Source of the DNA: Escherichia coli
Lineage (GTDB): Bacteria; Pseudomonadota; Gammaproteobacteria; Enterobacterales; Enterobacteriaceae
Direction: 5' to 3' (one strand)
Length of the DNA stretch: 64,000 nt
Assembly: GCF_001677475.2 (NCBI RefSeq)
Contig: NZ_CP015229.1
Part shown: one piece after another, positions 2,569 to 8,215 of the stretch
Layout: every line of letters begins with the position of its first letter
Numbering within the stretch: position 1 is the stretch's first letter
Translations under genes and position numbers: made by a program
Notes under the pieces: model-generated
Seen by the model: only the letters and a program-made list of their open reading frames with translations
Told to the model about the DNA's origin: nothing
Database searches by the model: none

Positions 2569-3093
2569 ATGGCTAAACCAGCAAAACGAATCAGGAATGC
2601 CGCAGCAGCTTATGTTCCTCAATCCCGCGATGCCGTGGTGTGTGATATTCGCTGGATTGGTGACCTGCAACGCGAAGCGGTACGACTTGAAACGGAAATG
2701 AATGACGCTATTGCTGAAATTACGGAGAAATACGCCTCACGGATTGCGCCGCTTAAAACCCGTATTGAAACCCTTTCAAAAGGCGTTCAGGGGTGGTGTG
2801 AAGCGAACCGTGACGAACTGACGAACGGCGGCAAGGTGAAGACGGCCAACCTGGTAACCGGTGATGTGTCATGGCGTCAGCGCCCACCATCAGTAAGTAT
2901 TCGCGGTGTGGATGCGGTGATGGAAACGCTGGAGCGTCTTGGCCTGCAACGCTTTATTCGCACGAAACAGGAAATCAACAAGGAAGCGATTTTACTGGAA
3001 CCGAAAGCGGTCGCAGGTGTTGCCGGAATTACAGTTAAATCAGGCATTGAAGATTTTTCTATTATTCCGTTTGAACAGGAAGCCGGTATTTAA
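2569..3093 (+). CDS. gam: Gam host-nuclease inhibitor (DNA end-binding)
   Basis: 174 aa, same length as Mu Gam; MAKPAKRI...IIPFEQEAGI closely matches Mu Gam as recalled. Confidence 0.9.
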   Translation: MAKPAKRIRNAAAAYVPQSRDAVVCDIRWIGDLQREAVRLETEMNDAIAEITEKYASRIAPLKTRIETLSKGVQGWCEANRDELTNGGKVKTANLVTGDVSWRQRPPSVSIRGVDAVMETLERLGLQRFIRTKQEINKEAILLEPKAVAGVAGITVKSGIEDFSIIPFEQEAGI

Positions 3094-3191: not shown

Positions 3192-3734
3192 ATGATTAAT
3201 ACAAAAGTTCTGAGCGGCGTCAGCACATTATTACAGGTTTACGGGCGTCTGACCTGCGGCGTACTGGCTGAAAAAATGAAGATGCCACCTTCCTCAATGG
3301 TGTATTTCCTGCGTGATGCGGTTGATGCCGGAGTTCTCACTGAATGCAACGGATTTTATGACGTTCCGCGCCCTCGTCCGACGCCGCCAGTAATACGAAA
3401 CGCAACAACGGAGCACCCCGATGTTGATGATGCTCAATGGTGCGCGTTCCGCCGCTCTTTGCCCTGGCTGGAAGGCAATGCCATTCCGGCACTGGCAAAA
3501 GAATTTGCGACAGGCGTACTGACCTGCGAGTCGGTTTACATCGTTGCTGAAGTGGATGACGATATGTGCAAACAGGGAATGCCCCGTTTTGTGATGGCTT
3601 ATATCGATATCCGGCTGGGTCGTTTTATTTGTGGCTCCAGTGGCTGGAATATCACCGACCACATCCTGCGCTATCTCATTCTTGATTATTCACCAGCTCC
3701 GGCAGCAACACAGGAAGTCAGTGAACATGATTAA
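3192..3734 (+). CDS. hypothetical early-region protein
   Basis: 180 aa ORF; weak RBS. Confidence 0.5.
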   Translation: MINTKVLSGVSTLLQVYGRLTCGVLAEKMKMPPSSMVYFLRDAVDAGVLTECNGFYDVPRPRPTPPVIRNATTEHPDVDDAQWCAFRRSLPWLEGNAIPALAKEFATGVLTCESVYIVAEVDDDMCKQGMPRFVMAYIDIRLGRFICGSSGWNITDHILRYLILDYSPAPAATQEVSEHD

Positions 3735-3909
3735 GTCAACTGGCTTTGTCCTGCTGGTTGGCACCTGCGGGAATGATGCCTGCGATGCCATTCCGGTAAC
3801 GGAAAAAATCTGGCCCACAGAGCAGGCATGTATGCAGGTGATGGAGCGCATACAAAAACGTTATCCCAGTGAAATCTTTTATTGCGAAGAGGTATTACGA
3901 AATGAATAA
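3727..3909 (+). CDS. small hypothetical protein
   Basis: 60 aa from ATG 3727, overlapping previous stop. Confidence 0.4.
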   Translation: MIKSTGFVLLVGTCGNDACDAIPVTEKIWPTEQACMQVMERIQKRYPSEIFYCEEVLRNE

Positions 3910-4228
3910 ACCAGAGAATAAAGAAATGAAATTCACACCAGTTGATATTGATGGCGTCATGGCTAATTTAAAGATGCTGGAACGTATGCACGATATCGTT
4001 AAATATGGTATTGAGCATGACCTCACCGCCAGAGAAGTCCGGAGCATTATTAACCGTGAAATGAACCAGGTGGAAGCTGCCGTGGCGCTACAAAATGAAG
4101 CAGCCCGCGAGGAATACATTCGTCGCAGGCTGGGACTATCAAATAAAGATATTCTTACGGATGCTCAGATGGCTGAGGCTTTTGATATTCATCAGAATCT
4201 TGGTCTAACAAACGGATGGTATCAGTGA
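3902..4228 (+). CDS. hypothetical early-region protein
   Basis: 108 aa from ATG 3902 with GAGG RBS. Confidence 0.5.
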   Translation: MNKPENKEMKFTPVDIDGVMANLKMLERMHDIVKYGIEHDLTAREVRSIINREMNQVEAAVALQNEAAREEYIRRRLGLSNKDILTDAQMAEAFDIHQNLGLTNGWYQ

Positions 4229-4421
4229 TTAGCTGTGATATTTGCAGAATGGGATTATTCGTTGTTCTCAATGCCGGAGCCTCTGCCGCTCCGCTTGCTG
4301 CGGCTTCGAGGATCGTTTTGCCTTCCTCTGCGGTAATCAGCCCCTTTCTGACAAGGAGTATCAGCAACCTTGAAGCAATGACATACCCTGCAACATCATA
4401 AGGCTGTTCACTGTTTTTCAT
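4155..4421 (-). CDS. small convergent ORF in early region (88 aa), unknown function
   Basis: Minus-strand ATG at 4421 with AGGA RBS about 9 nt upstream; opposite to all surrounding Mu genes; overlaps 3' end of 3902..4228. Confidence 0.4.
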   Translation of the reverse strand: MKNSEQPYDVAGYVIASRLLILLVRKGLITAEEGKTILEAAASGAAEAPALRTTNNPILQISQLITDTIRLLDQDSDEYQKPQPSEHP

Positions 4422-4494
4422 AAAAAGTTTCCTCTGTTTAGTGAGTGGATTCTGGCGGTGTTGCCGCACCGCCCCCTTTTCTGGAGGTACGATA

Positions 4495-5046
4495 ATGAAT
4501 CGCACATCCCTGATTAAATTAATTCATGTCGCCCGTCGTGATCTACAACTCGACGATGACACTTACCGCGCCTTTCTGGTGCAGTGCACAGGCAAGACCA
4601 GCTGCCGCGAGCTGTCCGTTGCACAACTGGAACGTGTGCTCGATGCCATGAAAGAGTGCGGTTTTAAAAAGCAGAAAAAACATCCCCGCCGTCGCTTTAA
4701 GGGGCATGTCACACCGCGCGAGAAGATTTATAAAATCTGGCAGCAGATGTTTCAGGATGGCTTTATCGCTGATGGCAGCGATGTCGCGCTGGACAAATAC
4801 GTTGCACGCCTGACGGCCAGACGTAATGGCGGTCAGGGGGTTTCCACGCTGGCCTGGTGTCACGGGGAATCGTTGCAGGTTGTGCTCGAAACGCTCAAGC
4901 AGTGGCACATGCGCTGCATCCGGGAAGCCTTTGCCCGACATGGTGTGCCGTTACCTGCAAGCCCATCCGGGCGGGAACTACGCGGATATGATGCACTGAC
5001 CAGTGCATATGCCCGCGCACGAAACAGCGGGAGAATTGCTGTATGA
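4495..5046 (+). CDS. gemA: GemA-like protein (Mu gp16 family)
   Basis: 183 aa; GGAGG RBS; position before mor. Confidence 0.75.
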   Translation: MNRTSLIKLIHVARRDLQLDDDTYRAFLVQCTGKTSCRELSVAQLERVLDAMKECGFKKQKKHPRRRFKGHVTPREKIYKIWQQMFQDGFIADGSDVALDKYVARLTARRNGGQGVSTLAWCHGESLQVVLETLKQWHMRCIREAFARHGVPLPASPSGRELRGYDALTSAYARARNSGRIAV

Positions 5047-5492
5047 AACAGATGAAAGAGCAGGATTTATTCGAAGACCTTCGGGACGACAGCGTTCTGG
5101 AATATCTTCATGATTACCAGGAAAACACCGCTTATCCGGCGTTACTTTCTGAACTGAACGCACTGCTGCGTAAAGAGCTGGCCCGGATTGGCGCAGACCC
5201 TGCTCATTCCCTTGAGCTGGTTGTGGCGATTTGTCGCCATATCGGCGGGATGCAGGTTTATGTTCCGAGGGGGAATATTCTGGAGAATCTTGTCCGGGAT
5301 ATGCGTATCTGGCGTGATTTTAACGGTCATAATATTCCTGAACTGGTTCAGCGTTACGGGGTGACGTATAAAACCGTCTACAAGGCCATCAAACGGATGC
5401 GACGTCTGGAGCGCAATAAATACCAGCCGGATTTGTTTTACCCCTCCCCGAACCTGCCTCACCCCGTTCGTCGTCCACCACGACGCCCTTAA
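5043..5492 (+). CDS. mor: Mor-like middle operon regulator
   Basis: 149 aa; ATG overlaps gemA stop; ...GGMQVYVPRG...YGVTYKTVYKAIKRMRRL resembles Mu Mor with longer C-terminus. Confidence 0.8.
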   Translation: MKQMKEQDLFEDLRDDSVLEYLHDYQENTAYPALLSELNALLRKELARIGADPAHSLELVVAICRHIGGMQVYVPRGNILENLVRDMRIWRDFNGHNIPELVQRYGVTYKTVYKAIKRMRRLERNKYQPDLFYPSPNLPHPVRRPPRRP

Positions 5493-7632: not shown

Positions 7633-7922
7633 TCCGGGCCAACTGGCCCATTTTATGGGCGCTGTTGATGACAGCGATAAATTTGCTTCAGCTGATTCTG
7701 GCAAAGACTTACGTCAAACGCGAAGAGTTTGATTCGCTGCGTTCCCGTGTGTCGGTGATGGAAGGTCTGGTGAATCAGCTCCCCGACCGCAATGAATTTC
7801 ACCGCCTGCAACTGGATATCAGCAACCTGCGGGGCGAAATCCGGGAACTGGGGCCATCCATACGCCAGGTTTCCCGCATCAGTGATTTGTTATTAGAGAA
7901 CGAGTTAAAGGTAAAAAATTAA
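7617..7922 (+). CDS. membrane-anchored coiled-coil protein (DUF2730-like)
   Basis: 101 aa; GGAGG RBS; N-terminal TM then heptad-rich region. Confidence 0.55.
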   Translation: MSWEVIRANWPILWALLMTAINLLQLILAKTYVKREEFDSLRSRVSVMEGLVNQLPDRNEFHRLQLDISNLRGEIRELGPSIRQVSRISDLLLENELKVKN

Positions 7923-8215
7923 TGGCGATGAAAGAGATCCTCACTGAAGACCGTCGTCTGGTGTTGCTGCGTTCCCTGCTGGACTGTGGCGACAGCGCGA
8001 ATGAATCCGTGTTGCAGACCTGCCTTCAGGCTTATGGTCATAAGGTATCCCGTGATGTGGTGCGCACCCAGCTTGCATGGCTTCGCGAGCAGGGGTTGGT
8101 TCGTCTGTCTGATGTGGGCGGCTGTTACGTGGCTGAAATCACCGGCAGCGGCGAGGATGTGGCAAACGGCCTGTCCAGCGTTCCGGGCGTTAAAAAACCC
8201 CGTGCGAGGGGCTGA
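7922..8215 (+). CDS. hypothetical protein, possible winged-helix regulator
   Basis: 97 aa; ATG at previous stop. Confidence 0.5.
   Translation: MAMKEILTEDRRLVLLRSLLDCGDSANESVLQTCLQAYGHKVSRDVVRTQLAWLREQGLVRLSDVGGCYVAEITGSGEDVANGLSSVPGVKKPRARG

Follow-up and report, generated by a model that had tools for sequence, protein, structure and literature searches.

The left end of the window (by which is meant the whole 64,000-nucleotide stretch of Escherichia coli DNA analysed here) lies inside a Mu-like prophage, in which the genes listed from MuB to the endolysin are all carried on the plus strand: MuB at 319-1278, Gam at 2569-3093, a gp11-like gene at 3192-3734 after which come the small early genes, gemA at 4495..5046 (PF06252, E=3.8e-33), mor at 5043-5492 and, downstream of it, the endolysin. 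Within this unidirectional array there is an open reading frame on the minus strand (4155..4421), and the question that it raises is whether it is a gene and, if so, which gene it is and what it might do against the flow of an early operon. The frame encodes 88 amino acids, beginning MKNSEQPYDVAGY and ending SEHP, and its ATG at 4421 is preceded by the Shine-Dalgarno sequence AGAGGA (4435-4430, minus strand, 8 nt before the ATG), a signal of similar strength being present in all seven of the lineages compared. On one side lies gemA and on the other the homologue of E15, or Mu gp14 (3902..4228, plus strand; phrog_6075, E=1.7e-42), the 3' end of which is overlapped by 74 nt on the opposite strand, such that the last ~24 codons of the minus-strand frame are plain antisense of E15. 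Antisense ORFs of 88 codons are unexceptional by length, many of them appearing in the window's ORF list, and the frame stands above chance because the positions of its ATG and stop are conserved across clades.

As judged from homology and gene order, the ORF is this prophage's copy of Mu gene 15, a member of a family that is already known but uncharacterised. Its product and Mu gp15 (Mup15, NP_050619.1), both of 88 aa, are 53% identical over 87 aa (tblastn, E=7e-18), residues 1-86 match phrog_8747 (E=5.6e-25), and the only significant viral Foldseek match is the Mu protein Q38493. The two loci also agree in start and stop positions, in the overlap with the 3' end of E15 and in their flanking hairpins. 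Indeed, in Mu, SfMu, vB_YpM_Tongde and E. coli prophages gp15 is convergent and sits between E15 (gp14) and gemA (gp16), and the gene is also present in several Yersinia Mu-like phages. The gp15 region is matched in 59 of 5,426 complete E. coli genomes, and a HMMER search over 1.84 billion representatives gave genuine matches only among enterobacterial Mu-prophage relatives. The repeat proteins that also appeared among the HMMER matches (an ankyrin protein, P0007-P0009) were rejected as spurious.

The public annotations of this locus disagree over its coding strand, even in the model phage Mu. The 1991 Mu left-end record, M64097, has a minus-strand 'F-134' here and RefSeq Mu has the minus-strand Mup15 at the same locus; the updated AF083977.1 carries instead a plus-strand 55-aa 'Mu_54' and no longer lists gp15. 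The homologues are called hypothetical by PGAP (for the E. coli prophages) and by RefSeq, and a search of the literature on Mu gp15/Mup15, the gem operon and Mu RNA-seq brought up no data on function or expression.

In this regard, an alignment of three clades, namely the window type, the Mu/SfMu type and a Salmonella type, which came from searching 1.84 billion proteins with a profile and was afterwards placed on contigs, allows the two strands to be compared. Across these clades, the gene-specific DNA of which is about 60-63% identical, the minus-strand ORF retains the same ATG and stop (88, 88 and 86 aa). Moreover, in the Mu clade the ATG is closely preceded by an in-frame stop, which fixes the start and rules out the 116-aa version that results when the ORF is extended mechanically to GTG 4505. 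Between the window and Salmonella types the substitutions in codons 1-38 fall 8/10/23 at codon positions 1/2/3, pN/pS over these codons is 0.26-0.38, and dN/dS, where computable, is about 0.1-0.2 with saturated synonymous sites. This pattern of substitution shows purifying selection on the first ~40 codons of the gp15-like gene; codons 39-64 are almost neutral (pN/pS 0.63-0.95). When every frame was scored against the codon usage of the prophage's own long genes, the minus frame gave an LLR of +0.175 bit/codon, in the company of gemA (+0.16) and mor (+0.27), and the five other frames gave -0.34 to -0.80.

The plus-strand frame that corresponds to Mu_54 (4216..4401, 61 aa), which was judged non-coding, scores -0.34 bit/codon, a value typical of antisense frames. 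Its boundaries shift between clades, from 61 aa in the window to 55 aa in Mu, the plus frame carries 1-3 stops in Salmonella and Mu across the same region, and its amino-acid identity is 0.44 vs 0.55 for the minus frame. Searches of Pfam, NCBIfam and PHROGs gave no family match for the 61-aa product. The wobble position of the plus frame is also that of the minus frame, and substitution tests can therefore tell the strands apart only moderately. Taken together, the comparative evidence makes it very probable that the minus-strand gp15-like gene is the real gene here.

Much of what had been claimed for the locus is thereby borne out. The original prediction had placed an 88-aa minus-strand ORF with its ATG at 4421 and a Shine-Dalgarno sequence between the last small early gene and gemA, all of which agrees with the ORF listing, with the translation, with AGAGGA at 4435-4430 and with the positions of the E15 homologue and gemA. 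It had further regarded the ORF as a convergent gene within an otherwise rightward early region, for which ORF conservation, dN/dS and codon usage all now speak, and had proposed conservation in related prophages as a check, to which the common ATG and stop of three clades and the N-terminal dN/dS of about 0.1-0.2 are the answer. The insert is not a novel one, being a homologue of Mu gp15, a gene annotated since the original Mu genome.

Beyond the three clades, more distant relatives were found by tblastn and a second profile search. These are a 79-aa type (phrog_32893; hhalign E=4e-7) and the 119-aa type of phage D108 (phrog_38610), the latter linked by PHROG cross-hits that connect phrog_8747, phrog_32893 and phrog_38610; both have the site and the orientation of gp15, upstream of gemA. 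Both have in common with gp15 an N-terminal helical-hairpin motif of ~35 residues, the core of which reads G-[YF]-x5-L-x3-L-x3-G-h-I-[TSN]-x-[ED]-[ED], as well as the Shine-Dalgarno sequence, the TAA stop codon and, downstream of it, a terminator-like hairpin on the minus strand. For the rest, the similarity of the two types to gp15 is remote only (hhalign E=4e-7 and 4e-3), with differing lengths and C-termini, and an acidic stretch of 30 aa extends the D108 type at its N-terminus. In D108 (NC_013594.1) the ORF is on the minus strand at 7853..8212 of the record (L030 812..1171), and two lineages of this type (D108 and L031), in which 78 of 360 nt differ, keep it open with pN/pS of 0.38-0.45, which indicates purifying selection. 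RefSeq leaves the 376 bp between gp14 and gemA of D108 unannotated, a gap that the 119-aa ORF fills. Four subfamilies were looked up, and each is carried on roughly 760-910 contigs (E. coli, Salmonella, Citrobacter rodentium, E. albertii), where the names given are all 'hypothetical' or 'Mu prophage protein'.

Several observations on individual copies are added here. In the 79-aa subfamily several copies (P0021, P0022, P0025, P0026) are frameshifted after residue ~43-50 and run into an alternative C-terminus, which suggests, from the sequences, either a constraint confined to the N-terminal domain or the decay of some copies. An IS256-family transposase (PF00872) lies in the 3' end of the gp15-like gene of a Salmonella Aberdeen prophage (L027 4236..5444) and alters the C-terminus of the product (P0005). 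In the window itself the E15 homologue has lost its stop codon, the AAC TGA of relatives being AAC GGA here (4214 T>G), such that read-through adds four codons (GWYQ) up to a TGA at 4226-4228; the same SNP turns gp15 residue 70 from Ser to Arg.

The gene is not carried by every relative. A variable segment of ~223-224 bp (4218..4440; GC 46.8%), which contains the Shine-Dalgarno sequence, the ATG and the first ~66 codons, is missing from Yersinia phage vB_YpM_3 (L006) and from the E. coli prophage OZ040490 (L019), the deletion junction being a TGAT microhomology, such that the E15 stop is followed after ~15 nt by the gemA hairpin. Since vB_YpM_3 is an isolated phage, gp15 is dispensable and hence accessory. 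It also diverges quickly: the gp15-specific DNA is only 63% identical to that of Mu vs 79% for E15, with residues 39-58 largely replaced, and against a closer relative (L020/L012) there are 20 substitutions in the gp15-specific 192 bp (4229-4421) vs 1 in the adjacent 228 bp of E15. Such clustering points, on this comparison, to local recombination, or else to faster change, in the middle of the protein (residues 39-58).

The slot is filled in Klebsiella phage Kp4866-3 (OK490420.1) by a 134-aa ORF (L029 767..1171, minus strand; phrog_585, E=1.5e-15, with a weak match to DUF2513) that is unrelated to gp15; it is oriented as gp15 is and stands 30 nt away from the conserved hairpin in front of gemA. 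Leftward cargo is also found at a second place, between gemA and mor, where some Salmonella and E. coli prophages have ORFs of 111 and 140 aa on the gp15 strand (L022 3052..3387 and L031 464..886), opposite to that of their neighbours, with no Pfam match.

The conserved hairpin just mentioned is a GC-rich stem, GGCGGTG..CACCGCC, followed by a T-run (4454..4483, plus strand), which stands directly 5' of the gemA Shine-Dalgarno sequence (GGAGG, 4483-4487); the stem itself, at 4454-4473, has eight pairs, six of them G-C, and the tail is CCCTTTTCTG. Its energy is not unusual with respect to shuffled sequences (z = -0.5). The stem is the same in every lineage, the deletion variants, D108 and the Klebsiella phage among them, and throughout the lineages 30-35 nt separate it from the cargo ATG, upstream of which it stands, and ~10 nt from the gemA Shine-Dalgarno sequence that comes after it. 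As it is kept in relatives without gp15, the hairpin is part of the gemA leader and lies outside the variable segment. The scans score it as a terminator on the plus strand in the window, on both strands in Salmonella (one lineage having an unbroken run of eight T's) and on the cargo strand in Klebsiella, and in the Mu record it is spanned by an annotated 'semi-early promoter', for which PMID 9454718 is cited. Of what the original prediction had said, then, the GC hairpin with its T-run does exist; the tie that was drawn between it and the minus-strand ORF does not hold, the hairpin being retained in relatives without the gene. The suggestion that the ORF is accessory cargo fares better, given the absence of 4218-4440 in vB_YpM_3 and an E. 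coli prophage, the faster divergence and the unrelated Klebsiella cargo in the slot.

At the other end of the gene, an intrinsic-terminator-like hairpin lies on the minus strand within the E15 coding sequence (4132->4101, with a U-rich tract at 4100->4090). It begins 23 nt past the gp15 stop, has 10+3 bp and is followed by CUUCAUUUUGU. The same arrangement after a TAA stop is found in Mu, Salmonella, the 79-aa type and D108, and the hairpin is present throughout the five subfamilies; terminator scans pick out the hairpin in D108 and Salmonella, and it corresponds to the TransTermHP feature 7839..7873 of AF083977. The E15 protein differs between lineages, yet the hairpin embedded in its gene is kept. 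In the alignment, 87% of the pair cells are standard on the minus strand vs 75% on the plus strand, three pairs of the stem change on both sides in a compensatory fashion, 22 cells that are G.U on the minus strand become A.C mismatches on the plus strand, and the U-tract is on the minus side only; with only 11 related sequences, the shuffle statistics for this hairpin are just indicative. The predicted hairpin is an indirect but strand-specific indication that leftward transcripts cross gp15 and are then terminated. No comparable downstream terminator was found in the Klebsiella phage with unrelated cargo. A further minus-strand terminator-like site, GCCTGCTCTGTGGGC and then CAGATTTTTT, occurs at 3813-3827 in the E14 homologue, ~330 nt downstream of the gp15 stop.

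The search for a start to any such transcript was negative. Within 400 nt upstream of the gene, in seven lineages, consensus, relaxed-hexamer and PWM scans found no sigma-70 promoter above chance: the best weak candidate, TTAATC-17-TATCGT (4517-4489, minus strand), has a PWM score of 6.8 vs a shuffled median maximum of 7.15 and is weaker still in Mu and D108. The upstream region has no similarity to the Mor-dependent Pm, and Rfam has no match in 3700-4800.

The protein itself is predicted by AlphaFold2 to form three helices (8-25, 31-47 and 57-74), the first two of which turn at K26-G27, with pLDDT values of 84-88 for residues 11-40 and of 70 on average. Searches of Pfam, NCBIfam, PHROGs and PADLOC returned only uncharacterised PHROG families and a sub-threshold similarity to SHOCT, the best match being PF22746 (18.6 bits vs a cut-off of 27, E=1.4e-3); SHOCT-like matches, all below threshold, occur in four of eight family members. 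The SHOCT domain is described as an indel-free pair of amphipathic helices, of ~30 residues, in which a Gly and a Glu are conserved (Eberhardt et al. 2013, PMC3581485). The likeness of gp15 to these entries (the PF09851 family, PF22746 and SHOCT_2, PF20612) would lie in the predicted pair of helices and in the Gly and acidic residues, LLVRKGLITAEEGKTIL; unlike them, the gp15 motif is N-terminal, and G27 is Ala in Mu. E32/E33 are kept in most family members, but are HD in D108. PADLOC-DB gave no match at E<=1 for any of the eight family members, sequence searches of the PDB nothing below E=0.29, and structure searches of the PDB and of viral models no informative fold match. The hydrophobic helix 10-24 was considered as a transmembrane segment and rejected on a reading of the sequence, as it is no longer than ~15 residues and includes a charged or polar residue whose position varies. 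None of these results singles out a role for gp15 in anti-defence or exclusion, which the original prediction had raised for opposite-strand inserts of this kind and which would at present be a guess.

The reading that best accommodates these observations, to which we give a probability of about 0.65, is that the ORF is a leftward copy of Mu gene 15, protein-coding against the flow of the early operon, which forms a moron-like unit with a helical product that binds a partner. The gene, its Shine-Dalgarno sequence and the terminator would together make up a small self-contained leftward transcription unit after the fashion of a moron. Such a unit would not depend on the early promoter Pe for its expression, which would most plausibly be low and take place in the lysogen; after induction, convergent early transcription would shut the unit down. 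The product would be a soluble three-helix protein of ~10 kDa with a SHOCT-like N-terminal helical hairpin at ~8-47, which probably binds a protein partner and is not a catalyst; candidate outcomes of such binding are exclusion, host modulation or the tuning of gemA-mor. What counts against this reading is the lack of a promoter, the neutrality of codons 39-64, the frameshifted variants of the 79-aa type and the removal of gp15 from the updated Mu record.

A broader proposal is that enterobacterial Mu-like phages possess a conserved leftward slot, reaching from the gemA-leader hairpin to the E15 terminator, in which interchangeable cargo is expressed from the repressed prophage and either protects the lysogen or gates read-through into gemA-mor. 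The cargo would be a member of the gp15 superfamily or, in Klebsiella, the DUF2513-like gene; the protection would take the form of exclusion or defence, and the gating that of convergent transcription. This seems unlikely. If it is true, then to our knowledge the slot would hold the only leftward unit in the Mu early region besides the repressor gene.

It is improbable, too, that gp15 is a regulator internal to the phage, one that binds GemA, Mor or the early transcription complex and so times the early-to-middle switch or stabilises lysogeny. Such a role would suit a gene whose place directly upstream of gemA-mor is fixed in every lineage and which neighbours the annotated 'semi-early promoter' of Mu, but it sits poorly with the absence of the gene from vB_YpM_3, its exchange for an unrelated protein in the Klebsiella phage and the fast divergence of gp15, and Pfam and PDB searches found no DNA-binding or other regulatory domain.

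The persistence of both the gemA-leader hairpin and the E15 minus-strand terminator in relatives without the ORF, the acceptance of unrelated cargo by the slot and the barely constrained C-terminal half of the protein could also be understood if the functional product were an RNA. In that case a leftward transcript from the gemA leader to the E15 terminator would throttle read-through into gemA-mor, by convergent transcription or antisense pairing, and the ORF would be incidental or secondary. An RNA would not, however, call for an N-terminal domain with purifying selection on its amino acids and gene-like codon usage, nor for a Shine-Dalgarno sequence and ATG kept in every lineage, nor for a protein domain kept over five subfamilies whose DNA no longer aligns; there is also no Rfam match, and no promoter was found for the RNA either. 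Such an account is distinctly improbable.

Still less can be said for a decaying or functionless ORF that is open only through neighbouring signals and recent common ancestry. Deletion variants, an IS-disrupted copy and frameshifted copies do exist, the C-terminal half is near neutral and the mean AlphaFold2 pLDDT is 70; nevertheless, the ORF is intact in five subfamilies, four of which are each on roughly 760-910 contigs, and an N-terminal dN/dS of about 0.1-0.2 with saturated synonymous sites, together with gene-like codon usage, makes decay very improbable. That Mu_54 is translated from the early transcript and the minus ORF is its antisense shadow, as might be argued from its replacement of gp15 in AF083977.1, from the fit of a plus-strand gene to a unidirectional operon and from its wobble positions, shared with the minus frame, and its pN/pS values of 0.40-0.65, below 1, is hardly credible in view of boundaries that shift from a 61-aa frame in the window to a 55-aa one in Mu, interruption by stops in Salmonella, the LLR of -0.34 bit/codon, the lower amino-acid identity, the lack of a family match, an annotated Mu_54 RBS of only 3 nt, and stops in all opposite-strand frames at the D108-type and 79-aa-type loci.

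For Mu itself, the comparative tests favour the minus-strand gp15 where the public annotations differ. Further results of the comparison are the unannotated homologue in D108, the link to two further PHROG families and the strand-specific terminator-like hairpin in E15. Should lysogens express the leftward copy of gene 15, Mu-like phages would have in it an accessory gene active in the prophage, comparable to the morons of lambda, and one that could readily be put through screens for exclusion or host modulation; without such expression, gp15 would be a routine conserved hypothetical gene.

The morons of lambdoid phages are reportedly autonomous units of promoter, gene and terminator that lie as insertions among conserved genes and are expressed by the prophage. 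The gp15 locus differs from these in that no promoter was identified, in that its GC content is not distinctive and in that its predicted terminator lies inside the neighbouring gene, outside the insert. It resembles them as a small accessory gene that some relatives have and others lack in the space between conserved neighbours, with a predicted terminator of its own and an orientation that, to judge from the map, would permit expression while the surrounding operon is off. A second comparison is with the Pseudomonas Mu-like phage Fc02, which reportedly has two small opposite-strand overlapping genes, olg1 and gene 10, at the edge of the early operon (PMC9936078). The Fc02 genes adjoin the repressor/ner switch, in contrast to gp15, which adjoins gemA, and the likeness between the two loci is one of arrangement. 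One of olg1 and gene 10 is transcribed in the lysogen and has superinfection-exclusion activity, a function shown experimentally in Fc02 (PMC9936078).
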